The notes: generated by a model from the letters alone, not told the origin. Counted from the first letter of the stretch, positions 8,879 to 42,148 are shown. The stretch: DNA of 64,000 nt from Escherichia phage BEU50 (OM632671.1); one strand, 5' to 3'. Numbers and translations: made by a program.

Positions 8879-10327
8879 TTAAGCTGTAGGAAGTTCAACC
8901 CATGCGCCATCTTTGCGAACATAGAATTTACCGTCTGAAGGAGCATCTTCAATATATCCAGCGTCCTTAAGAGTTTGGATTTCAGCTTCTGCAGCGGCCA
9001 AATCAGTTTCAAGAGTAGCAATTCTAGAAGTTAAACCATTAATTGTCGTATCATGACTTTTAACTGTAGGCAATATACCGCGTTCTTCAACAGTTGAACC
9101 ATTTGGGTTGGTGCCATTTATAAGAGTATTTAATGTGTTTACAGAACCCTTAATTCCTGTGGAATTAGTCCCAACATCAGTTTGAATGTTCTGAATGTCA
9201 TTACTCAGCCCACCGATAGTTCCTTCAAGCTCTCGAGTACGATAAAGCAAAGAGCCGTCTGGTTCCGGTTTCCCACCTGAAGCGTCAACACCAACTACGT
9301 TATTTAACCATGACACATTAAAACGCAATCCTGACGAAGAATCAGAGCCGACAACAGTGTTCAATGCTCCGATAGCATCAGTATTGAGTTTAATACGTCC
9401 TTGGATTGTAGTAGGCAAATCATCAGCGCCAATGGCAGTTTCTACTGTAGTCAAACGAGGTTTAATACCACCGGATTGATTGAGCTCAAGATTAATGTCG
9501 TTTATTGCTGAACTATTCGCATTAGTTGTAGTAATAATAGAAGTCGTATTAGGATACCCAATAGACTGTTTAATGCCATCCAAGTCAGCATTTTGACGCG
9601 ACAAAGTTAAATCAATACTGGAAAGACGACTAAACACTGGAGTAGTGAAAGAAGTACGAGGCCCCATTTCTTCGCGCAAGTGTTCGACTTCAATAGTTAA
9701 AGAGCCGACGTCAGAATCAGCAAATTTAGTTTCTAAATCGGTTAATCGAACACCGTGGTCAACAATTACGGAGCTATTAGTCATAATACGGCGTTTCATA
9801 CCAGTGCTATCATTTCCTGGAGTAGGAACCCCATTAATATCTTGACCAGTATATTGTCCTAATTCATTTTTAATCCAAAGCAGGTCATTACGAACCGTTC
9901 TATAAACTGAATCCGTTTCCTGATTATAAACACCAATATCATCAGTATTCGCATCAATATGTTCATTCAAATCATTCAATTCACTGGCATGGGTTTGAAC
10001 TGTGACTTTAATGACATCGATATCTTGGGTGTTCTGACCTATCTGTGAAAGAGCATCAACATCCCCAGAAACATCTAAAATACCTTGAATAACTTTGATA
10101 TCTTCATTGGCCGTATTCAAAGAAGATGCTATAGTTTTAATATTAACATCTAACGCTTCTACGTTACGTTGAACTTCAACAATAGGACGGTTCATTACAC
10201 CTTCAGAACCGTATTTTGTGTCAGCACCTGTTATTTCTTCATCGTTTTTAATCCATTCAATACGACTCTGACCCGCGTCTGGCGGGCCGTCAACATATGG
10301 TAAATCTACCAGAGTTATATCAGCCAT
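8879..10327 (-). CDS. wac: fibritin (whisker protein) with C-terminal foldon
   Basis: 482 aa; C-terminus GYIEDAPSDGKFYVRKDGAWVELPTA resembles the T4 foldon; position between 12 and 13. Confidence 0.9.
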   Translation of the reverse strand: MADITLVDLPYVDGPPDAGQSRIEWIKNDEEITGADTKYGSEGVMNRPIVEVQRNVEALDVNIKTIASSLNTANEDIKVIQGILDVSGDVDALSQIGQNTQDIDVIKVTVQTHASELNDLNEHIDANTDDIGVYNQETDSVYRTVRNDLLWIKNELGQYTGQDINGVPTPGNDSTGMKRRIMTNSSVIVDHGVRLTDLETKFADSDVGSLTIEVEHLREEMGPRTSFTTPVFSRLSSIDLTLSRQNADLDGIKQSIGYPNTTSIITTTNANSSAINDINLELNQSGGIKPRLTTVETAIGADDLPTTIQGRIKLNTDAIGALNTVVGSDSSSGLRFNVSWLNNVVGVDASGGKPEPDGSLLYRTRELEGTIGGLSNDIQNIQTDVGTNSTGIKGSVNTLNTLINGTNPNGSTVEERGILPTVKSHDTTINGLTSRIATLETDLAAAEAEIQTLKDAGYIEDAPSDGKFYVRKDGAWVELPTA

Positions 10328-14371: not shown

Positions 14372-15243
14372 TATTGAGCGACCCCAATTTTCTGAGTTGA
14401 GATAATTTTAACTGCTGAACGTAATCCAATAATATCGGATGTAATCGTCATAGTAGCAAAGTTGTTAATAATACTAAAGCTAATATTAGCAATCTCGTCG
14501 GTTTCATCTACATTACCAACTCGCATTACTGCAAATTCGGTAGAAAGAACTTCTGAGTTAATTGTATCTATTAGAATATTTATTTCACATGTTTTTATTT
14601 TTCTACCGTCTGCGGATTGGCATGTAACAAGCAATTTAGCCATGTTATAATCTGTGCGATAAAACAGAGGAATAGAAACTGAGTTTCCTGTAAGACTCCA
14701 AGTCCCATCGACAGGAGATTCTTTCTGCCCAAACATGCTATCGGTAGAATAATTCCATACTGAAGTTGGCCCATTAATTTCAACACAGCGAAGAACAACA
14801 TGGGTATAAGGGGTTGAAATAACAAGATTATTAAGAACACCTTTAATCGAACCGTCGGTTACTTGGATACTTAAAGGATTGTTAACAGAAATAGACCCAT
14901 TAGAGTTTATGAATTCTACAGAGTCACCTAATTCAGGACGGTCAATAATAACAATCACACCACCATCAGAAGCATCAATATCATGCATAGTGCCTGGTTT
15001 AATAGGAGTTTGATAATCGACCGCCTTTCCTTTTTGATAATAACCTGTGGCATGAATAGTTTGACCTGTAGGTCCGGTTCCATCTGCTACGGCCATTTTA
15101 CGTTGATCGCCAAATGCATTGTAAATAGCGTTGATATCGTCATTTATTTTATTACCACCGTCGAATAAGATATCACCTGTTGAGGCATTACCAATTTCGC
15201 CGGTATCGATTAATTGTTTAGGAGTTTGCTTAAAAAATGCCAT
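14371..15243 (-). CDS. 9: baseplate wedge / long tail fiber socket protein gp9
   Basis: 290 aa; synteny 8-9-10. Confidence 0.92.
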   Translation of the reverse strand: MAFFKQTPKQLIDTGEIGNASTGDILFDGGNKINDDINAIYNAFGDQRKMAVADGTGPTGQTIHATGYYQKGKAVDYQTPIKPGTMHDIDASDGGVIVIIDRPELGDSVEFINSNGSISVNNPLSIQVTDGSIKGVLNNLVISTPYTHVVLRCVEINGPTSVWNYSTDSMFGQKESPVDGTWSLTGNSVSIPLFYRTDYNMAKLLVTCQSADGRKIKTCEINILIDTINSEVLSTEFAVMRVGNVDETDEIANISFSIINNFATMTITSDIIGLRSAVKIISTQKIGVAQ

Positions 15244-28013: not shown

Positions 28014-28089
28014 TTTCACAAAACAGTTTACATAAGGATGATGGCGTGTTACTATCATCCTATCAAATAAACGACCTCAAGGAAATAAA

Positions 28090-28377
28090 ATGAAAACCTA
28101 TAAAGAATTTATATCACCTGATGCTAACGTTTCTACTCTAACCGAAGCAACCCTTACTTCCGAAGTTATTAAAGCAAATAAAGGACGTGAGGGTAAACCA
28201 ATGATTGGCCTGGTTGACGGCGAAGAAGTAAAAGGTACTGTTTACTTAGGGGATGGATGGTCTGCTAAGAAAGATGGCGCTACTATTGTTATCTCTCCGG
28301 CTGAAGAGACTGCACTGTTTAAAGCTAAGCATATTTCTGTAGCTCAGCTTAAAATTATTGCAAAAACTCTTCTGTAA
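28090..28377 (+). CDS. internal protein (IPI-like) with N-terminal capsid-targeting sequence
   Basis: 95 aa; begins MKTYKEFI (CTS-like); occupies the ipI position after 57B. Confidence 0.65.
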   Translation: MKTYKEFISPDANVSTLTEATLTSEVIKANKGREGKPMIGLVDGEEVKGTVYLGDGWSAKKDGATIVISPAEETALFKAKHISVAQLKIIAKTLL

Positions 28378-28380
28378 GTA

Positions 28381-28412
28381 GTTTACATGCTGATAGGACT
28401 ATGTTATAGTAG
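28381..28412 (+). promoter_or_regulatory. early promoter (GTTTAC -35, TATAGT -10) inside a 10-bp inverted repeat (PeSL family A)
   Basis: GTTTAC at 28381-28386; IR gataggacta / tagtcctatc flanks the -10. Confidence 0.6.
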
Positions 28413-28447
28413 TCCTATCAAAACAAATGAGTAAATGGAGAAATAAA

Positions 28448-28633
28448 ATGAAACGCGCTGAACTGATTCGTAATGTTGCTGTAGTAATTGCTTCAATGGC
28501 TTTTAGTTTTTCGATGTTTGTAGGATTCATTTGTGGACTACTGACAACAACAGAAAATTCTATCTCATTGGTAGTAGCATTTCTAATCGGCTTAATCGCT
28601 ATCGTTATGGATAAAATTGCAAAAGGTGAGTAA
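28448..28633 (+). CDS. small membrane protein (two predicted TM helices)
   Basis: ATG after SD ggag; hydrophobic stretches. Confidence 0.55.
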   Translation: MKRAELIRNVAVVIASMAFSFSMFVGFICGLLTTTENSISLVVAFLIGLIAIVMDKIAKGE

Positions 28634-28634
28634 A

Positions 28635-28997
28635 ATGAAATATCACGTATATGCGGATTTTGAAGCAAATCCTTCTAAAGACCCTGATTGTCGTTTGATA
28701 CGCAGACCATTTGATTCAGCAGCTCAAGCATGGGCTTGGATTAAAACTTGTACTCCTTCTTACACTTTCTTTGAAGTGGTAGACGATAACGGTGTTCTGC
28801 ATCCAGAACCTACAGAAACTATTAATTTCCTTCTGTTTGCTGGTTACGACTGTTATCCTCTTGGCGGTATTGATGATCTTGTTGCTACAGGAAAAACTGT
28901 TGAAGCTCTTCGCGAAATTTATAAAAACGCGGAAGAAAATTTTGACTGGTATCATATTGTTGATGCTCATACCTTTGAAATGGTGGAACATTCATGA
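28635..28997 (+). CDS. hypothetical protein
   Basis: ORF with SD aaggtgag; tightly packed early-gene arrangement. Confidence 0.55.
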   Translation: MKYHVYADFEANPSKDPDCRLIRRPFDSAAQAWAWIKTCTPSYTFFEVVDDNGVLHPEPTETINFLLFAGYDCYPLGGIDDLVATGKTVEALREIYKNAEENFDWYHIVDAHTFEMVEHS

Positions 28998-29284
28998 TTC
29001 TTTATGCTAAAGTATCGTCCATTGAGAACGGATATGAAAGCGACCAACGAGCAGCTAAAGCGTTAGTTGATGACTATGGTATTTTGACTAATTTTGAAGT
29101 TGAAAAGGTTTACATCGACCGTTCGTCTTCACAGGTTAAATTACTCTGTGAAGACGATAAATTTAACACAGTTAACTTTGATTTCTTTATTGAAACAGAA
29201 AAAGGCCCTCTTGAATATGATATTTTCAAGAATCCTTTGAAATTACGTTGCATTGAATATAATTACATTAATATGGTACGGTGA
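28994..29284 (+). CDS. hypothetical protein
   Basis: ORF overlapping upstream stop (ATGA coupling). Confidence 0.55.
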   Translation: MILYAKVSSIENGYESDQRAAKALVDDYGILTNFEVEKVYIDRSSSQVKLLCEDDKFNTVNFDFFIETEKGPLEYDIFKNPLKLRCIEYNYINMVR

Positions 29285-29288
29285 GTAA

Positions 29289-29804
29289 ATGAATATTTGT
29301 TTAGGCAGTACAATTCCTAAGGGTTACGTAATTGATGTCACTACTTGGGAAAATGACGGCGACAACTATAAAACCAAAACATTATTTGGTGTGGAAGAGC
29401 ATGAGCTCCAACAGTTTAAATATCTCTTGAAGAAATTTAAGAGTCGTCATTCCAGCACTAAAGCTGAACGTTACTGTGGTAATACACCATTCAGTGATTG
29501 CTCGCTTTTAATCTATGAATACTTGGTTGAAGGGCTGTTCTCAGACCAGCTTTATCCAGAATTCATTAAAAAGGTCTTTGATATTGAAGTCGACCTTGGT
29601 AATAAATCTGAAGAAGACGAATCGCGTGTATTCGACCTGTTCCATGAGAATGGATATTTGGTATCAGAAGGTCTCATTGATATTCTTGGTCATGCTTCTG
29701 AATATTATGATTATGATTTCTTGCGTGTAGTTGAATGTGTTGAATTTGCTTATATTGAAGAAGAAATCGTTTTGCCAACTGTTAAAATGATTGATTTGCT
29801 TTAA
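29289..29804 (+). CDS. hypothetical acidic protein
   Basis: 171 aa ORF. Confidence 0.55.
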   Translation: MNICLGSTIPKGYVIDVTTWENDGDNYKTKTLFGVEEHELQQFKYLLKKFKSRHSSTKAERYCGNTPFSDCSLLIYEYLVEGLFSDQLYPEFIKKVFDIEVDLGNKSEEDESRVFDLFHENGYLVSEGLIDILGHASEYYDYDFLRVVECVEFAYIEEEIVLPTVKMIDLL

Positions 29805-29883
29805 GAATTATGTGTTATTATTAATTCGTACCCTCTATTACCAAAGGTGCTCTAAAGTGCCTTTCATAATAGAAAGTTATTTA

Positions 29884-29957
29884 GGCCCTGTAGCTCAATG
29901 GTTAGCAGCAGTCCCCTCATAAGGGAAAGGTTACCAGTTCGAATCTGGTCTGGGTCA
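29884..29957 (+). tRNA. tRNA with anticodon CAU (Met, or Ile if lysidine-modified)
   Basis: Manually folded cloverleaf: acceptor GGCCCTG / CTGGGTC, anticodon loop CTCATAA, T-arm ACCAG-TTCGAAT-CTGGT; D-stem imperfect. Confidence 0.7.
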
Positions 29958-29963
29958 TATATT

Positions 29964-30040
29964 CGAGGCATAGCTCAATTGTATGGAGCAACGGACTTCT
30001 AATCCGTAGGTTGAAGGTTAGAATCCTTCTGTCTCGACCA
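29964..30040 (+). tRNA. tRNA-Arg (anticodon UCU), CCA encoded
   Basis: Acceptor CGAGGCA / TGTCTCG, anticodon arm ACGGA-CTTCTAA-TCCGT, T-arm GAAGG-TTAGAAT-CCTTC, 3' ACCA; 6 nt after the previous tRNA. Confidence 0.85.
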
Positions 30041-30058
30041 ACTTTAAGTGAGGAAAAT

Positions 30059-30403
30059 ATGAAAGGCAATATTTATCTGGTAGTTCATGATTTAACGTTT
30101 TATTTTAACGAATATGATACAGTTATTTCTCATCGATTGATTAATTCGCTGTATCAGCATGCCGATTACATTTATGTTCAAAATGAATTTGGACATTGGA
30201 AGTTCATTAAAAATCGTTACGGGTTAACTAGTTTTGAATACTTTGACCGTAAAGACCTTTTAAACGAAATCCCATTGCAACATCGATTCCAGAAACGCGA
30301 ATCATTATATTATTGCCGTCATATACCAAACGCCGAATGTGTTAATGAAGCGATTAATCTATGGCGTCGGCGTCGAGAGCAAATTGATGATATGCCAAAA
30401 TAA
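30059..30403 (+). CDS. hypothetical protein
   Basis: ATG after SD gaggaaa; the track ORF 30011 would overlap tRNA-Arg, so the downstream start is used. Confidence 0.5.
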   Translation: MKGNIYLVVHDLTFYFNEYDTVISHRLINSLYQHADYIYVQNEFGHWKFIKNRYGLTSFEYFDRKDLLNEIPLQHRFQKRESLYYCRHIPNAECVNEAINLWRRRREQIDDMPK

Positions 30404-30715
30404 GAAGCCGGGTCGCTACCGGTAAGTCGTCGGACTGATGTTCCCTGAGTAAGGACTGGTCTTAATAAATCTTTACGATTTGTTAATATCCCCTTACATC
30501 ACAGCAGAAACGGCGCACAGAATTATCGATTCGAGGAAATATCTTTGCCGTAAGCCGAGTAGCGTTTTTGACGGAACGTTCGGATATGGTCGAGATATGG
30601 CCTTTTAAAAATATTGAGTAGCGTCAACTGCTTAATAACCGGGTTCGAATCCCGGCGTTTCGTACAAACACTTGCCTTAGCAGGTGGAAACCCCGACAAG
30701 GTTGCCGCAAGGCTT
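30404..30715 (+). ncRNA. non-coding region with tRNA-like T-arm; possible stable small RNA(s) analogous to T4 tRNA-cluster species
   Basis: About 310 nt with no convincing ORF; ACCGGG-TTCGAAT-CCCGG T-arm-like element near 30640-30660; ends at a rho-independent terminator. Confidence 0.3.
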
Positions 30716-30745
30716 AGCCCCTTCCGAAAGGTTGGGGCTTTTTGG
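30716..30745 (+). terminator. rho-independent terminator (repeated element, copy 1)
   Basis: agcccc-ttcc-gaaa-gg-ttggggct hairpin followed by TTTTTGG. Confidence 0.65.
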
Positions 30746-30788
30746 CATAATAATAAATAGATAAGTTAATTAACTTAGGAAAAGCAAC

Positions 30789-31253
30789 ATGAAATCATAC
30801 GCTGAATTTTTGACTGAACAATCTAGTTCAGATGTAAAAGCCGCTGCGATTGCAGCAATTCAAGCAGGTAAATATTCTTACAAAGACGCCTCTGATGAAG
30901 AACGTTTCCGTTTTATTAGAGATTTTAAAGCCGAAGGTTTTACTAATGCTAATACTGTTAGCCGAGTTTTTAAAAGCCTAGCTGCATCAGGTGAATTGTT
31001 CCAGAAAGCTACAGGTAAAGCACCTGCGCCAAAAGCGGACCCTAAAGCAGCTCAAGAAAAAAATATCGCCAAAGGAATTATTTCTAAGTATGAAGCAATT
31101 CTTAAAGAGCTTTTAGTAATCAAAACAGAAGGACAGAAACTGGCACGAGCACATAGCTTCAAAGATAATCCTCACGCTCATAGCCTTGAGTATGTTGAAG
31201 ATATCCAAAAACTTATTAAAGACCGTATCTGGTCTGCTAAACAAATTAAATAA
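30789..31253 (+). CDS. internal-protein-like protein with N-terminal capsid-targeting sequence
   Basis: 154 aa; begins MKSYAEFLTE (CTS with L-x-E); flanked by terminator copies 1 and 2. Confidence 0.6.
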   Translation: MKSYAEFLTEQSSSDVKAAAIAAIQAGKYSYKDASDEERFRFIRDFKAEGFTNANTVSRVFKSLAASGELFQKATGKAPAPKADPKAAQEKNIAKGIISKYEAILKELLVIKTEGQKLARAHSFKDNPHAHSLEYVEDIQKLIKDRIWSAKQIK

Positions 31254-31258
31254 TAGAA

Positions 31259-31290
31259 TGCCCCTTCCTTATGGTTGGGGCTTTTTGGCA
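31259..31290 (+). terminator. rho-independent terminator (repeated element, copy 2, loop variant)
   Basis: gcccc-ttcc-ttat-gg-ttggggc plus T-run; same stem as copy 1. Confidence 0.65.
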
Positions 31291-31319
31291 TCTAGGGCAT
31301 AAAAATATTTCATAAAGAT

Positions 31320-31350
31320 GTTTACTTCTTCTAAGGACATGATACTATAG
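31320..31350 (+). promoter_or_regulatory. early promoter (GTTTAC, 17 nt, TACTAT), PeSL family B
   Basis: GTTTAC 31320-31325, TACTAT 31343-31348; downstream SD agaggag. Confidence 0.6.
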
Positions 31351-31376
31351 ACTTATCAACCACAGAGGAGAATATT

Positions 31377-31682
31377 ATGAGTCTTTACACTGAACTGAAT
31401 AAAAAATCTGAAGAATCTGCTGAAACTATTTTTAAAAACGTGCAAAAGCGTATTTTAGAAAAGATGTATAACACTGCAGCTAAAGGTGAAAAATCTTGCC
31501 GGTTCCCGATGAGGTGTTCTTCCGATTTATGCGCAAATACTATTGAATGGCTGGAAAGTGAAGGTCTTACGGTAGAGAAAAACCCGGCGATTTCTATTGA
31601 CAGTGAATCATATATTAGTATTTCTTGGGATAAACCACGTATGAATGAAGGACACTACAAGTTGTTAAGTTGGAAAAATTAA
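31377..31682 (+). CDS. hypothetical protein
   Basis: 101 aa ORF downstream of an early promoter. Confidence 0.55.
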   Translation: MSLYTELNKKSEESAETIFKNVQKRILEKMYNTAAKGEKSCRFPMRCSSDLCANTIEWLESEGLTVEKNPAISIDSESYISISWDKPRMNEGHYKLLSWKN

Positions 31683-31689
31683 AAATAAT

Positions 31690-31722
31690 GATGTACAAGC
31701 ACCAAGGATGGTGATACTATAG
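31690..31722 (+). promoter_or_regulatory. early promoter, PeSL family C (ccaaggatgg core)
   Basis: atgtacaagcaccaaggatggtgaTACTAT; related to the promoters at 48061, 49117 and 50137. Confidence 0.5.
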
Positions 31723-31750
31723 ACTTATCAACTACAGAGGAGTAAACAAA

Positions 31751-31915
31751 ATGACTACTTTAATTATTTGGTTCGATGAAAATGAAGAAACATACTGTGT
31801 GAATATTGGTGAAAGTCCAATGCCTGAATTTGAATCCTCAGATAAAAACTCTGTTGTATCTTGGGCTGAAGGTTATAAAGCAGCTAAAGGTGACGTTGAA
31901 ATAATTTACATCTAA
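31751..31915 (+). CDS. hypothetical small protein (54 aa)
   Basis: Manually translated ORF MTTLIIWFDENEETY...; SD gaggag; not in the track (<60 aa). Confidence 0.45.
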   Translation: MTTLIIWFDENEETYCVNIGESPMPEFESSDKNSVVSWAEGYKAAKGDVEIIYI

Positions 31916-31961
31916 GTAAGTTTATGTTATAGTAGTCCTATCAAATCAAGAGGAAAACAAA

Positions 31962-32189
31962 ATGGCTAAAGTTAGTATTGATGTCGTTGATTATGAATAC
32001 ACCGAAGAAGTTATTCGCAACCGCCACCCTGAAGTTCGTATCGATTCAGTACAAGATTCCAAGTTCTGGACAACTGAGCTTAATCTGAGCGGCCCTTATG
32101 AAGCTGTTAAGAAGTTCATGGTTGAAGAATACTGCGAAGGCATGCACCCCGAAGACGCCAAGTTTTATGTCAATTTGATTAAAAAATAA
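31962..32189 (+). CDS. hypothetical protein
   Basis: 75 aa ORF after SD agaggaaa. Confidence 0.55.
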   Translation: MAKVSIDVVDYEYTEEVIRNRHPEVRIDSVQDSKFWTTELNLSGPYEAVKKFMVEEYCEGMHPEDAKFYVNLIKK

Positions 32190-32220
32190 TTTACAAACTC
32201 TTGAGAGCAGAGTATAATGC
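32189..32220 (+). promoter_or_regulatory. early promoter with IR around the -10 (PeSL family D)
   Basis: ATTTAC ... gagagca-gagTATAATgctctc; about 50-nt element repeated at 58353-58405. Confidence 0.55.
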
Positions 32221-32259
32221 TCTCGTTGGATAATAAACCACCAATTGAAAGGTAATAAT

Positions 32260-32853
32260 ATGAACACACTGAAGAAACTTGTTGAATTCATCCGCACTAA
32301 ACTGGGTACTGCTATGGCTAAAAATCTGACTGTCGAAGAACAGTATAACGCAGCTGCAGATAAGTTGATTACCCAAATCAAAGAACTAAAAACGGCTTCT
32401 GTTAAATCTATTAATGAAGAAAAACGTATTCGCGAACTTGTTAATGAAAAGAACAAGCAAGCCGCTTCTAAGGAACGTGAAATTCGTAAGCTCCTTGCTG
32501 AAGGACAAGATGTTACTATGCATGCTAAGCTTGGTCTTCTGTATCGTCGAACTGCCGAACAACTTAATACAAAGGCTGACGGGTATGCCGCTATGCGAAT
32601 TGAAATTGCTCGTAAGGTGGTTGAACTTGACGATGCTCGTCAGAACCTGGCAATCAAACTCGAATACATTCGTGAAACTCGAGCAGCCAATGCCCTTGGT
32701 ATCTCTACGGCCGATGATGTAATTGAAATAGCTGCACTGACTAAGGTTGATATCGAAGACACTCTGACTCGTGTTGAAACGTTCAATGGCACTCCAGCCG
32801 GCGTCGAAACCACTTCTGCTGATGTACAAGAATATATTAACTCTTTGAAATAA
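32260..32853 (+). CDS. hypothetical coiled-coil protein
   Basis: 197 aa from ATG after SD aaggtaa; predicted long alpha-helical/coiled-coil sequence. Confidence 0.55.
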
Positions 32854-32902
32854 AATAATACGGAGGACTCCGGTCCTCCTTTTGGATAATAAAGGAGTTA
32901 AC

Positions 32903-33385
32903 ATGCGAAACCAAAATAATGATATTGACTCAATGTTCGAAGAGTTCCGAGATAAGGTAAATCCACCTACGTCTTTAGTTGATTCATTACGATATGTTGC
33001 AACTGGACGTAAATGGTACTGGTCGTCTTCTTATGAGACCACCGAGAAAACGGCTAGCCATAGCAGAAAATCTTTATTAGCCCCAGGTATTATGATTCAT
33101 GATATCGGAGCTATTGCTAAACTAGTTGCAGACCATGATATTAGATTCACCGATTTCGTTGCTCCTACATGGTCTGTTTGTTGTTTAAACACTGAATGGG
33201 AAGCTCCAGATCGTACTCTTCTTCAGTTTGATTGGCAAACATGGCACACTGGTTCTCGTGCAATTAGTAACGGATGGCGTTGGTTCGGACGTGTATCTCG
33301 TAATACAGACCGAGTTAAAAAGATTACCAATGAAATTCGTGTCAATGCCCAAGTTTATCTGGAATTCCCTATGGAAGGTTGGTAA
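32903..33385 (+). CDS. hypothetical protein
   Basis: ATG after SD aaaggag; the track ORF starts at an upstream TTG. Confidence 0.55.
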   Translation: MRNQNNDIDSMFEEFRDKVNPPTSLVDSLRYVATGRKWYWSSSYETTEKTASHSRKSLLAPGIMIHDIGAIAKLVADHDIRFTDFVAPTWSVCCLNTEWEAPDRTLLQFDWQTWHTGSRAISNGWRWFGRVSRNTDRVKKITNEIRVNAQVYLEFPMEGW

Positions 33386-33876
33386 TGATTAACAAAACAT
33401 ATTGGTCTAATATAGACGATGGCGACGAAGGTATTTCGTATTATTCGGTAGATTGGACAGGATGTCCATCCTACTTAGTGAAACATATTTGCCAAGAATT
33501 TAAAATCGACCAGCCAGCAGGTATTATTGTGAACAGATACATTAATGGATATCAACCTATCGATGAAGTAATACGAACAACTCAAGCTGAGCTTGAAAAG
33601 TTTTTCAATAAGTGTCAATGGATAACAGGATGGATTATATTTGTACCGTCGGTATGGTTTTTTAGTACTAAAGTAAGTGCCTTTGCTGTACTAGATATTA
33701 TCGCTATCTTATTAGCATCTACTATCGTAAGTATTATTGGTGGTATTATTGGTGGAGGTACTATAGGCATCATTATTAATCTTGTTAAAAGTAGTTTACA
33801 AGAACATAAAGACAAGATAAAAGCCAAGAATAATGAAGTTGAACGTTTTATTACCGAATGCAGGAATTTGAGATGA
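33385..33876 (+). CDS. hypothetical membrane protein (Gly-rich TM segment IIGGIIGGGTIGIII)
   Basis: ATG overlapping the upstream stop (TAATG); hydrophobic core. Confidence 0.55.
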   Translation: MINKTYWSNIDDGDEGISYYSVDWTGCPSYLVKHICQEFKIDQPAGIIVNRYINGYQPIDEVIRTTQAELEKFFNKCQWITGWIIFVPSVWFFSTKVSAFAVLDIIAILLASTIVSIIGGIIGGGTIGIIINLVKSSLQEHKDKIKAKNNEVERFITECRNLR

Positions 33877-34109
33877 GTATAGCAATTTACATTAAATCAG
33901 AATCATGTGATAGTTATCTGTACACATATGATAAAGATGTGTCAGAAGAAAAAATCAAAGACGACCTTAATATGGACCTTGATATGTTCTGTCCTATTGC
34001 AGATTACAAACTTGCGGTCTCTAATAGTGAAAGTCCATCTAAAGAAACGCGCATTGAAGAATTTATGTCCGAATTAATGGCCAAATCATGGGACCGAGAT
34101 GATGAGTAA
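33873..34109 (+). CDS. hypothetical acidic protein
   Basis: ATGA overlap with the upstream stop; alternative start at 33858. Confidence 0.5.
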   Translation: MSIAIYIKSESCDSYLYTYDKDVSEEKIKDDLNMDLDMFCPIADYKLAVSNSESPSKETRIEEFMSELMAKSWDRDDE

Positions 34110-34557
34110 GAAAAATAAAGTGAAAGAACTATCAGCCGGTATTATTTTCCTTACCGAAGATAAAGAATTATTCATGGGGCGTGTAACTGGTTCTCGTCCT
34201 AAAGGTGCATTAGCTCATCGGTGGGATATTCCTAAAGGCCGTGTCGAACCTGGCGAATCTCCTATCGAAGCCGCTATTCGTGAATGCGAAGAAGAAACTG
34301 GGTTTACACAATATGACCCTGCCTTCCTGAAAGACCTAGGCGAACATCATTACTCAGACAATAAGAATATTCATCTGTTCCTATATACCATCCCTGTAGA
34401 GCACGAGCAATTCAGAAACAGTGTTTGTAATTCCTATCATACATTCCCAGACGGACGACAGATTCCTGAATTTGATGCATTCGCTTTAATTAAACCTTCT
34501 CAATGGGAATATGTAATGGGCAAATCATTATATAAGGTGCTCACCACCCTCCTATAA
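34099..34557 (+). CDS. nudE: Nudix hydrolase NudE (e.1)
   Basis: Nudix box GRVEPGESPIEAAIRECEEETG; 152 aa; immediately upstream of lysozyme e as in T4. Confidence 0.9.
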   Translation: MMSKKNKVKELSAGIIFLTEDKELFMGRVTGSRPKGALAHRWDIPKGRVEPGESPIEAAIRECEEETGFTQYDPAFLKDLGEHHYSDNKNIHLFLYTIPVEHEQFRNSVCNSYHTFPDGRQIPEFDAFALIKPSQWEYVMGKSLYKVLTTLL

Positions 34558-34591
34558 GTAATAAATACCTCCTATAAACGTGGGAGGTATT

Positions 34592-35080
34592 ATGAATATA
34601 TTTGAAATGCTTCGTAATGACGAAGGTCTTAGACTGACTTTATACAAAGACACCGAAGGCTTTTGGACGATTGGCATAGGCCATTTAGTAACAAAGAACC
34701 CGTCTTTAGCCGTAGCTAAAGCTGAACTTGACAGAATGATCGGACGTAAATGCAACGGTACAATTACCCTTGATGAGGCTGAAAAGCTATTTAATGAAGA
34801 CGTTGATAAAGCCGTTCGCGGAATCTTGGGTAATGCTAAACTTAAACCGGTATATGATTCTTTAGATGCGGTTCGTCGTTGTGCATTGGTCAATATGGTC
34901 TTCCAAATGGGTGTAGCAGGCGTCGCCGGTTTTACTAATTCTCTTCGTATGCTTCAACAGAAACGTTGGGATGAAGCGGCAGTAAATCTAGCCCAATCTA
35001 AATGGTATCGTCAGACACCTAATCGCGCGAAACGTGTAATCTCAACATTTAAAACAGGAACTTGGAAAGCGTATATATGA
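34592..35080 (+). CDS. e: endolysin (T4 lysozyme)
   Basis: [32 protein letters not shown]... near-identical to recalled T4 lysozyme. Confidence 0.97.
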
Positions 35081-35358
35081 AAACATATAGTGAATTTTTA
35101 TCAGAATCTATTCTTAACGAAGCTACTGACACATTTGCAACTAAGCTAGGTGCAGCTTTGGTTGAAGCTGAAAGTCTATTAGCACGTATTTCTGAACTTG
35201 CTAGTAAGATAGATACTCGCAAATTTGAACGTACCAGCGATATCGCTAAGCTTGAAGCTTTGTTACGTATGTGCGATAAACCGGAAGAAATCGCTAAGAA
35301 CGGCTCGTTAATGAAACAACGTCTTGAAAAATATATTTCAGGCGCTTCAGAAAAATAG
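35077..35358 (+). CDS. internal-protein-like protein with capsid-targeting sequence
   Basis: 93 aa; begins [10 protein letters not shown]; ATGA overlap with e stop; sits between e and denV where T4 carries ipIII/ipII. Confidence 0.6.
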
Positions 35359-35359
35359 T

Positions 35360-35390
35360 GTTTACTTCCTCCAAGGACTTTGATACTATA
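35360..35390 (+). promoter_or_regulatory. early promoter (GTTTAC, 18 nt, TACTAT), PeSL family B, with IR cctccaag / cttggagg
   Basis: GTTTAC 35360-35365; right IR arm contains the denV SD ggagg. Confidence 0.6.
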
Positions 35391-35416
35391 CATTCATCAA
35401 CTACTTGGAGGAAATT

Positions 35417-35830
35417 ATGACTCGTATCAATTTAACACTTGTTTCTGAACTGACTGACCAACATCTTATGGCTGAGTATCGTGAATTACCACGCGTATTT
35501 GGTGCAGTCCGTAAACATGTTCAAAACGGTAAACGTGTAAAGGATTTTAAAATCTCTCCAACATTTATCTTAGGCACAGGTCACGTAACATTCTTTTACG
35601 ACAAACTCGAATTTTTACGTTTACGTCAAATCGAGCTAATCGCTGAATGTTTGAAACGTGGTTTCAAAATCAAGGACACGACAGTCCAGGATATTTCCGA
35701 CATCCCTGCCGAATTTCGTAATAATTATGTCCCGTCCGAAGCGTCCATTGCGATAAGTCAAGCACGCTTAGATGAAAAAATTGCTCAACGTCCGACTTGG
35801 TACAAATACTATGGTAAATCAATTTACTAA
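35417..35830 (+). CDS. denV: endonuclease V (pyrimidine dimer DNA glycosylase)
   Basis: [35 protein letters not shown]... near-identical to recalled T4 DenV. Confidence 0.95.
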
Positions 35831-35836
35831 GGAAAA

Positions 35837-36097
35837 ATGAAAATGTATCAAGAATTTATCATTGAAGCAGATGCCAAAGGTCCTAAATTTAAAGTTAAAG
35901 CTTTCATTGGTGATGCGGAAGACTTTGGCTCATTAAAACGTAATGGGTATTCTTTCTTAGGTGGCGATGGTAAAGAAATCAACACCTATGCAAAACGTAG
36001 TGAAATTGCTTATGTTGTAGCAAGTCCTAAAGTAGATGTTGACGATATTGGATATGATTTTAACAACTTCGGAATTATTTCTGGCGGTAAAGCTTAA
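35837..36097 (+). CDS. internal-protein-like protein with capsid-targeting sequence
   Basis: 86 aa; begins MKMYQEFIIE. Confidence 0.55.
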   Translation: MKMYQEFIIEADAKGPKFKVKAFIGDAEDFGSLKRNGYSFLGGDGKEINTYAKRSEIAYVVASPKVDVDDIGYDFNNFGIISGGKA

Positions 36098-36100
36098 ATT

Positions 36101-36131
36101 GTTTACGCTTAAGTATTAATATGGTATAATT
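36101..36131 (+). promoter_or_regulatory. early promoter (GTTTAC, 18 nt, extended -10 TGgTATAAT)
   Basis: GTTTAC 36101-36106, TATAAT 36125-36130. Confidence 0.65.
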
Positions 36132-36160
36132 ACTCTATCAAAACAAACAAGGAAACAAAA

Positions 36161-36475
36161 ATGAAAACGTATAAAGAATTTATTGCAGAATCCGCCAACC
36201 AACGCGTTGAAGGTGGTTATATTTGGATTGAACAAGTTGAGCCACCGAGCCGCACTTCTACAGGTAAATGGAAAATTACTGTTGACGGTCCTGGTGGTAA
36301 ACGTAGGACTCTTAAAGAAATTAATGGGTACTATGAAGAAGCTCTTTCGGATGCAGGAACTTACATGATGCAAATCATGATTAAAAACCCTGAAAACCGT
36401 TTTGCAGCTAAAGTCTTCCGTCGTATTGGTAATAAACTTTATGATGCATACTCTAAAAACTTCCCTAAAGAATAA
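36161..36475 (+). CDS. internal-protein-like protein with capsid-targeting sequence
   Basis: 104 aa; begins MKTYKEFIAE. Confidence 0.6.
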   Translation: MKTYKEFIAESANQRVEGGYIWIEQVEPPSRTSTGKWKITVDGPGGKRRTLKEINGYYEEALSDAGTYMMQIMIKNPENRFAAKVFRRIGNKLYDAYSKNFPKE

Positions 36476-36500
36476 CATAAATTAAAACAATAGGAACAAA

Positions 36501-36830
36501 ATGAAAACATATCAGGAGTTTATCACTGAAGTTACATTATCTGCGGAACAGAAAGCTGCTATCGAAGAAGGTAAAAATCCCAAAGTAACATACAAAGTAA
36601 ATAGTAAAGGCGTTTTTGATGGCTTGGTTCAAGACCCTGAATTGAAAAAAGCTCTTTCTAAAACTAATGCGTACTTTGCTCCTAAATTTAACACAGCCGG
36701 TGTACTTATTGGATTGGATGTATTCAACTCTAAAGGTGTTCTATCTAATGCCTTTGGTTATGCCGCTAACAAAATTACCAAAGCCGCATGGGAATCCAAT
36801 ACCAAACAAGCTCAAAAGCCTAGAGTATAA
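36501..36830 (+). CDS. internal-protein-like protein with capsid-targeting sequence
   Basis: 109 aa; begins MKTYQEFITE. Confidence 0.6.
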   Translation: MKTYQEFITEVTLSAEQKAAIEEGKNPKVTYKVNSKGVFDGLVQDPELKKALSKTNAYFAPKFNTAGVLIGLDVFNSKGVLSNAFGYAANKITKAAWESNTKQAQKPRV

Positions 36831-37003
36831 TTCTTGCCTAATAAAGGGAAACGCAACCTCTCCTCATGAACGTCGAGTCCTCTGAGTGATGTACCTTTTC
36901 CAACCTGTAATAAGGTCGAGCGCAATGCGGTAATGGGTTTACATAGCGAGTCGAAGGACCTAACATGTGCCACGGAATGGCCCCAACCTAAAAGAGAAAC
37001 TAA

Positions 37004-42115: not shown

Positions 42116-42148
42116 AGCCCCTTCCGAAAGGTTGGGGCTTTTTGGCAT
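42116..42148 (+). terminator. rho-independent terminator (repeated element, copy 3; identical to copy 1)
   Basis: tagccccttccgaaaggttggggctttttggcat identical to 30715-30748. Confidence 0.65.

Follow-up and report, generated by a model that had tools for sequence, protein, structure and literature searches.

Background

The internal proteins (IPs) of phage T4 are made as precursors with propeptides of 10 to 19 residues, and for IPIII the first 10 residues are enough for packaging (PMC9026906, a review of work from the Black laboratory). Targeting by this tag depends on residues 4 and 7, and its processing by the gp21 protease on residues 8 and 10; the ten tag residues suffice to package foreign proteins (PMC9026906). 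T4 Ip1, Ip2 and Ip3 each inhibit one variant of the GmrSD type IV restriction enzymes without cross-protection, and variants of the GmrSD family have been proposed as the targets of every protein encoded in the Ip loci (Silas et al. 2025, PMC12373910). In the published picture there are two IP loci and no IP genes elsewhere (PMC2839356, PMC12373910). More than 30 IP variants are attributed to Comeau et al. 2007 and promoter elements of the IP loci were first noted by Repoila et al. 1994, both according to passages of PMC2839356. Here we analyzed a stretch of 64,000 nt of Escherichia phage BEU50 (OM632671.1), referred to as the window, in which a preliminary description had noted six open reading frames (ORFs) that start with a T4-like capsid-targeting sequence (CTS), here also called the tag. 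All six are located on the + strand.

The six genes probably encode T4-type internal proteins, and we consider it very likely that all six products are packaged and injected. The observation is real and the reading is sound, but it concerns established biology which is ordinary for the genus, and the functional hypothesis has already been published. The modest additions are two tag-bearing families annotated as hypothetical, a hairpin-bounded site outside the classical loci and a break of homology at the tag. The tags, cleavage motifs, family identities, cassette junctions and the head module of phage a20 come from this analysis, the functions of the tag and of IPI, Ip2 and Ip3 from the literature.

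Results and discussion

Shared start of the six genes

Six ORFs beginning MK[TSM]YxEF[IL] exist at the starts reported before. They are listed here with their products; the slash marks the predicted cleavage site.

28090..28377, + strand: ipI ortholog, 95-aa precursor, tag MKTYKEFISPDANVSTLTE/A, predicted 76-aa mature IPI*
30789..31253, + strand: unnamed tag-bearing family (phrog_2280; PP01_137 family), 154 aa, tag MKSYAEFLTE/Q
35077..35358, + strand: Ip5-like internal protein, 93 aa, cleavage predicted before A16; phrog_3499 'internal head protein', 2e-46
35837..36097, + strand: internal head protein of the RB69p125 / VR25_125 family, 86 aa, tag MKMYQEFIIE/A; phrog_2667 'internal head protein', 7e-21
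36161..36475, + strand: Ip10, 104 aa, tag MKTYKEFIAE/S; phrog_3966; named Ip10 in PP01, VR25, VR20 and SP18
36501..36830, + strand: unnamed family RB69ORF123c / AnYang ORF054, 109 aa, tag MKTYQEFITE/V (start MKTYQEFITEV)

Scanning the 64 kb in six frames with MK[TSM]Y.EF[IL] and with looser patterns gave six matches, which are these ORFs; no seventh copy of the tag was found in the six frames by strict or loose patterns, and 100 shuffled sequences contained 0 matches. Y4, F7 and I/L8 are present in all six ORFs. The glutamate at position 10, which had been given for the whole set, is found in five of the six, whereas ORF 28090 has P10 and carries LTE/A at residues 17-19, like T4 IPI. Five ORFs accordingly hold the processing motif [IL]xE at residues 8-10 and ORF 28090 uses the motif at 17-19. 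Cleavage is predicted after E19 in ORF 28090, after E15 in ORF 35077 and after E10 in the other four. The experimentally mapped targeting and processing residues are retained, which agrees with the earlier equation of the shared start with the T4 CTS.

The LNE/A of ORF 35077 at residues 13-15 is conserved in RB69, VR25 and the window, and VR25 lacks E10. The Ip5-like copy of RB69 (RB69 coordinates 8917-9198) has a degenerate start, MKTYMNFYQNLSLNE/A, retaining only Y4, F7 and LNE/A, which makes this copy a natural experiment on the importance of the individual tag residues.

The codons of the tags vary synonymously at T3 (ACC/ACA/ACG), Y4 (TAT/TAC), E6 (GAA/GAG) and I8 (ATA/ATC/ATT). Since they do, selection acts on the tag peptide and not only on the DNA; the N-terminal similarity is conserved as protein and goes beyond the context of a start codon. 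This bears on the explanation that the shared start is kept for reasons of DNA or translation, for instance recombination at this site or strong initiation, and that some of the ORFs, especially 30789 and 36501, are not packaged. The tag-coding stretch does coincide with breakpoints of homology between genomes, ORF 30789 lies outside the recognised IP loci, and early-type rather than late promoters precede the T4 ip genes as well as ORFs 28090 and 36161. However, next to the protein-level conservation, the critical Y4, F7 and I/L8 and the cleavage Glu are retained even in diverged or degenerate copies, the ten tag residues are sufficient for foreign cargo (PMC9026906), and a perfect late promoter precedes the ORF 30789 ortholog in PP01. 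We regard this explanation as very improbable.

Genomic setting

A 10-kb query around the six-gene region matched 979 phage records. The top match was Escherichia phage a20 with 98.7% identity over the full query, and by its sequence the window belongs to Mosigvirus, the RB69-like group. On the + strand the order is deoxynucleoside monophosphate kinase (gene 1), 57A, 57B, ORF 28090, small ORFs, two tRNAs, small ORFs including the site of ORF 30789, nudE, e (lysozyme), ORF 35077, denV, ORFs 35837, 36161 and 36501, and vs.8. From gene 1 to vs.8 this equals the T4 map, reversed. The window ends in the tail sheath gene and the head module lies beyond it. In a20 the portal, prohead core, scaffold, head maturation protease and major head protein are encoded just past the window edge; because these genes are present there, the phage can be counted among those with a T4-type prohead core and a protease of the gp21 family.

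As a gene set the six are not new. For ORFs 28090, 35077 and 35837 the annotation of a20 already reads internal head or virion protein, ORF 36161 is so annotated elsewhere, and the names Ip5 and Ip10 exist. Five of the genes, all but ORF 30789, lie within the two classical hypervariable IP loci, 57B-tRNA and e-denV-vs.8, which hold ip genes also in Tequatrovirus, Gaprivervirus, Dhakavirus, Karamvirus and Kanagawavirus.

The tRNA at 29884-29957 was called tRNA-Met (CAT) by ARAGORN, whereas phage ChristianSchoenbein annotates it as a tRNA-Ile reading ATA. The tRNA cluster of T4 includes a tRNA-Ile; the window phage has two tRNAs here compared to eight in T4.

The IPI ortholog

ORF 28090 matched the Pfam profile PF11634 (IPI_T4) at 1e-49 with 166.8 bits (cut-off 25), covering 76 of 76 profile positions, and chain A of PDB 2JUB at 2.3e-41 over residues 20-95. 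Its identity to T4 IPI is 87% over the full length and about 93% in the mature part, which corresponds to 5 substitutions in 76 residues. By these similarities ORF 28090 is IPI itself, which is a proven inhibitor of GmrSD, and the 'unknown specificity' assigned to every gene in the preliminary description was wrong in this case. None of the other five ORFs matched the IPI_T4 profile.

T4 IPI, whose mature form IPI* (PDB 2JUB) inhibits the GmrSD of E. coli CT596, shares with ORF 28090 the length of 95 aa, the neighbouring gene 57B, which adjoins ORF 28090 as it does in T4, and cleavage after residue 19 (ITE/A in T4 IPI, LTE/A in ORF 28090). The two differ in the five substitutions of the mature domain, which could alter specificity, and in the DNA they would protect, which is presumably arabinosylated in the window phage, judging by its genus, and glucosylated in T4. 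IPI of RB69 is reported to prevent restriction of the GmrSD type; whether the sensitivity of RB69 to the UTI89 enzyme stems from its IPI sequence or from DNA arabinosylation was left undecided in the same paper (PMC6024577).

The gene is flanked by two promoter elements:

28027..28061, + strand: early-type promoter TTTACA-17-TACTAT with embedded stem-loop (28035-28061), upstream of ipI (promoter scan; fold z = -3.6)
28382..28420, + strand: second early-type promoter TTTACA-17-TATAGT with stem-loop (28391-28420), just downstream of ipI (promoter scan; fold z = -4.6)

For the stem-loop at 28391-28420, 0 of 200 shuffles folded as well. The two promoter stem-loops bracket the ipI cassette, and T4 ipI has the same upstream arrangement. 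They fit the PeSL-like elements described at IP loci by Arbiol et al. (PMC2839356). PeSL cassettes are promoter-early stem-loop modules that shuffle accessory genes of T4-type phages and, like ipI, are bracketed by two early-promoter stem-loops.

The e-denV-vs.8 locus

The product of ORF 35077 is 47.6% identical to Ip5 of T2 and RB32 and clusters with ip5 of PP01 and VR25. The stop codon of e overlaps its start (ATGA; 35077-35080), which suggests translational coupling of the internal protein to the lysozyme gene. The preliminary description had called three of the genes tandem, and ORFs 35837, 36161 and 36501 indeed follow each other after denV. ORF 35837 starts 6 nt after denV and ORF 36501 starts 25 nt after the end of ORF 36161. 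Judging from the ATGA overlap and the gaps of 6 nt and 25 nt, ORFs 35077, 35837 and 36501 are probably co-transcribed with their respective upstream genes. ORF 36161 is preceded by a promoter of its own:

36102..36130, + strand: early-type promoter TTTACG-17-TATAAT with TG, upstream of ip10 (promoter scan and sequence)

Folding gave no stable stem-loop at this promoter. T4 ipI, ipII and ipIII each lie behind an early-type promoter GTTTAC...TATAxT, and the same applies to ipI and ip10 of the window.

The family of ORF 35837 comprises 217 phage records, and its members in a20 and RB69 carry the annotation internal head protein. The family of ORF 36501 comprises 90 phage records, and all listed rows carry 'hypothetical protein' but one, 'RNA polymerase ADP-ribosylase'. 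ORFs 36501 and 30789 were not found named as Ips among the listed records or in the literature searched.

Comparison with close relatives places the edge of an exchanged unit inside the last gene. The window is 98% identical to ChristianSchoenbein until position 36524, 24 nt into ORF 36501, and the identity resumes at 36900; ChristianSchoenbein carries an Ip3-type gene (14525-15103, 192 aa) in place of ORF 36501. The homology to PP01 runs through ip10 and stops at 36531, just past the tag of the next gene. As homology to both phages breaks here, the exchanged unit has its 5' edge at the tag-coding stretch. The genes behave as swappable cassettes, in which homology is bounded by the shared tag-coding 5' end and by flanking promoter stem-loops or hairpin repeats. 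Recent intergenus transfer of ipI or ip10 was considered and found unsupported: their nucleotide identities are 83% (T4) and 86.5% (PP01), with neighbouring genes at 72 to 86%.

Relations among the mature proteins

Downstream of the tag the six proteins had been described as unrelated. BLASTP with the tags stripped and hhalign of eight Ip families bear this out, as every pair remained below 3% probability; the profiles of the 36161 and 36501 families are shallow (5 and 3 sequences), so that very distant homology is possible. PHROGs assigns ORFs 36161 and 36501 both to phrog_3966, each with more than 110 bits. Tandem paralogy of these two was rejected at the available sensitivity (tag-stripped BLASTP E = 0.49, hhalign 0.2%). 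The five non-IPI ORFs showed no likeness to T4 Ip2 or Ip3 past the first 10 to 11 residues.

With the word-indexed protein search we obtained 2 clusters for ORF 36501, 3 for ORF 36161 and 10 for ORF 30789. An exhaustive HMMER search of 1.84 billion representatives returned 8 clusters for ORF 30789. No bacterial or distant homologs of ORFs 30789, 36161 and 36501 were found in these searches (word-indexed for all, HMMER for 30789). The AlphaFold2 (AF2) model of Ip10 (ORF 36161) was unusable, with a predicted local distance difference test (pLDDT) of 49, and no structure search was made with it.

ORF 30789 and the hairpin-bounded site

ORF 30789 matched phrog_2280, a family of unknown function, at 1.1e-53. 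Its family comprises 511 phage records, about 400 of them at 60 to 80% identity; those listed are mostly Tequatrovirus and every listed row reads 'hypothetical'. Diverged relatives start MLKFNEFLAE, MLEYSEFLKE or MKFKEFLIE, and this retention of a tag-like start argues that the tag is functional in the family.

In the AF2 model of ORF 30789 the tag is disordered and followed by a domain of three helices (residues 13-67, block pLDDT about 79-89), from which a linker of Lys, Pro and Ala leads to a helical hairpin modelled with less confidence; with a predicted template modelling score of 0.44, the N-terminal domain alone is usable. Foldseek gave no match with E < 4 in the PDB, and its only matches among the viral models of BFVD were uncharacterised proteins of this family. 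Relative P0010 is a chimera of a protein like that of the window ORF 28617-28997 and the last 32 residues of the 30789 family, and relatives P0007 and P0009 are shortened, ending just past the Lys/Pro linker. Such chimeric and shortened forms suggest that the family is modular and often recombining.

The gene is located downstream of the tRNAs and of rnaD and rnaC homologs, outside both classical loci, and is enclosed, as a unit of 543 bp, by two copies of a 32-nt hairpin:

30717..30748, + strand: upstream 32-nt GC-rich hairpin with T-run, terminator-like (repeat search family D1; hairpin fold)
30752..30759, + strand: late-promoter-like AATAAATA (T4 late promoter TATAAATA with a single mismatch), 37 nt upstream of ORF 30789; putative promoter
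31260..31291, + strand: second 32-nt hairpin, downstream of ORF 30789, with 91% identity to the upstream one and differences in the loop only

The hairpin pattern has 3 copies in the window against 0 expected. The third, an exact copy of hairpin and T-run, is found at 42118-42145; its counterpart in a20 lies just past a coding sequence (CDS) annotated 'lysis inhibition'. The hairpin with its T-run seems to be a reused terminator module.

The content of the site differs between relatives. Where the window has ORF 30789, RB69 has another tag-bearing gene, ORF149c (MKTYAEFLTE), and both genes are present in ChristianSchoenbein. The hairpin at 30717-30748 is the junction of the cassette differences to RB69 and ChristianSchoenbein, and at the hairpin 31260-31291 the homology to ChristianSchoenbein breaks, where that phage has an extra 1.1-kb segment with another tag-bearing gene. 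From this genome comparison we infer recombination at the repeats. PeSL cassettes resemble ORF 30789 in being bracketed by hairpins, here of the 32-nt GGGG...CCCC type, and in showing the intergenome differences at these elements. Unlike PeSLs, the repeats at ORF 30789 are plain terminator-like hairpins followed by AATAAATA, with no sigma-70 promoter.

In the Tequatrovirus PP01 a perfect TATAAATA directly follows the hairpin, 41 nt ahead of the start of the ORF 30789 ortholog. AATAAATA precedes RB69ORF149c as well as ORF 30789. Upstream of e (34555-34592) TATAAGTA and AATAAATA are found where T4 has twin TATAAATA late promoters. In Mosigvirus AATAAATA may be a working variant of the late promoter.

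ORF 30789 and genes of the RB69ORF149c type could define a third IP locus just downstream of rnaD/rnaC, delimited by hairpins and apparently driven by a late promoter, a reading that we put forward tentatively and with some doubt. Relative to the two published loci the site is unrecognised, and the catalogue of more than 30 variants (Comeau et al. 2007) may include it.

Within this region the stable RNAs of T4 have homologs at 30400-30518 (rnaD, 87.5%) and 30526-30664 (rnaC, 98.6% over 139 nt), rnaC being much more conserved than the adjacent genes (72 to 86%). The small 'hypothetical' CDSs annotated over this stretch in a20 are probably spurious. An Rfam scan at gathering thresholds returned the two tRNAs only and reported neither rnaD nor rnaC.

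Function of the internal proteins

By analogy to T4, the first 10 to 19 residues of each precursor would act as a CTS that tethers it to the scaffolding core during prohead assembly. The prohead protease, a gp21 homolog, would then cleave after (I/L)xE, and the small mature proteins would remain with the DNA in the head and be ejected into the cell at infection. As they would be ejected together with the DNA, they would act before phage gene expression. For the five proteins other than IPI we infer packaging, cleavage and injection from sequence.

Several points weigh against this reading or its functional extension. The residue after the cleavage site (P1') is Q in ORF 30789 and V in ORF 36501, compared to Ala after the cleavage sites of T4 IPs. 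Q and V at P1' are probably atypical for gp21 in general as well. The mature product of ORF 35837 has a predicted isoelectric point (pI) of 6.4, near neutral, whereas T4 IPs are basic. For the five non-IPI families neither virion proteomics nor N-terminal sequencing was found in the literature searched, and the search gave no data on expression timing for the tag-bearing families. Their mature domains had no Pfam, NCBIfam or PADLOC match above threshold, and a sequence search of the PDB gave chance-level matches only. The profile and structure searches proposed in the preliminary description therefore led to IPI_T4 and 2JUB for ORF 28090 and to no known domain or fold for the others, Foldseek having been run for ORF 30789 alone. 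A perfect late promoter TATAAATA is absent within 1 kb upstream of all six genes. This is not evidence against their status as head proteins, because T4 ipI, ipII and ipIII also lack TATAAATA within 300 nt upstream. Finally, ip4-10 gave no reproducible inhibition when tested against a panel of GmrSD enzymes with T2, T4 and T6 and no Mosigvirus (PMC12373910).

The predicted pI of the mature products is 8.1 to 9.7 in the other five, and their charge resembles that of T4 IPI*, IPII* and IPIII*. Some of the six might therefore mainly serve the virion, as basic DNA-binding proteins that neutralise charge or aid in assembling the head or in packaging and ejecting the DNA, and lack a specific target in the host. 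The Lys/Pro/Ala-rich linker of ORF 30789 would fit such a role, as would the approximately 300 copies of each T4 IP per head and the slower head assembly and smaller burst of IPIII mutants (PMC9026906). However, IPIII has a specific GmrSD target despite its assembly phenotype (PMC12373910, PMC9026906), the T4 IP genes are dispensable on laboratory hosts, and the rapid turnover of cassettes between close relatives would be left unexplained. A mainly structural role is improbable in our view.

That the tag-bearing genes serve against host defence, as suggested in the preliminary description, is the current view in the field, since T4 Ip1, Ip2 and Ip3 inhibit distinct GmrSD enzymes (PMC12373910). 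ORF 28090 (IPI) would bind and block a type IV restriction enzyme of the GmrSD type. The other five would most likely be one-to-one inhibitors of further modification-dependent nucleases, in Mosigvirus those which attack DNA with arabinosylated cytosine. That these five inhibit type IV restriction enzymes is quite possible, though we would not yet call it probable.

The closest models are T4 Ip2 and Ip3, inhibitors of GmrSD-ECOR21 (BrxU) and GmrSD-ECOR17, respectively. Features in common are the 10-residue tag and its IxE cleavage (84 to 91% identity in the first 23 to 31 nt), the e-denV-vs.8 locus, early-type promoters and basic mature products. Ip2 and Ip3 themselves are absent from the window phage, but the positional alternative to ORF 36501 in the sister phage ChristianSchoenbein is of the Ip3 type, whose T4 homolog is a proven GmrSD inhibitor; this speaks for inhibition of GmrSD-type enzymes. 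A second group of models is Ip4 to Ip10 of T-even relatives, with ORF 35077 in the Ip5 family, ORF 36161 being Ip10 and ORF 35837 annotated as internal head protein.

Alternatively, the five non-IPI proteins would be packaged and injected but act on something other than GmrSD-type enzymes, either on other defences or in host takeover, like the injected ADP-ribosyltransferase Alt of T4, which exemplifies injected proteins with other roles (PMC9026906). The missing match of Ip4-10 to active GmrSD variants (PMC12373910) points in this direction, and the tested set includes the Ip5 and Ip10 families (ORFs 35077 and 36161). Moreover, the mature domains are mutually unrelated and resemble no known inhibitor. 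Against this, all three T4 tag proteins with known targets act on GmrSD enzymes (PMC12373910), an Ip3-type gene replaces ORF 36501 by position, and with 76 to 144 aa in their mature form the five proteins are too small and show no enzyme signature. The DNA of the test phages also matters here: Mosigvirus DNA contains mono- and di-arabinosylated cytosine and is cut by BrxU, a member of the GmrSD family (PMC13390438), so that tests of ip4-10 on glucosylated T-even phages may have missed the relevant enzymes. Targets other than GmrSD-type enzymes are the less likely option, but one to be taken seriously.

Conclusions

The analysis offers no new principle; it provides a clean list of six genes for an RB69-like phage. 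Injected internal proteins are the first counter-measure of the phage, arriving together with its DNA, and they help to decide which wild E. coli strains can be infected. They are relevant for the choice of therapeutic phages and for the discovery of new restriction systems. If the products of the possible third locus are truly packaged, more than 500 sequenced T-even-type phages would carry an unrecognised family of injected effectors, and their targets may be nucleases outside all GmrSD panels tested so far. As Mosigvirus DNA is not glucosylated, the five orphan proteins are reasonable probes for nucleases that recognise arabinosylation.

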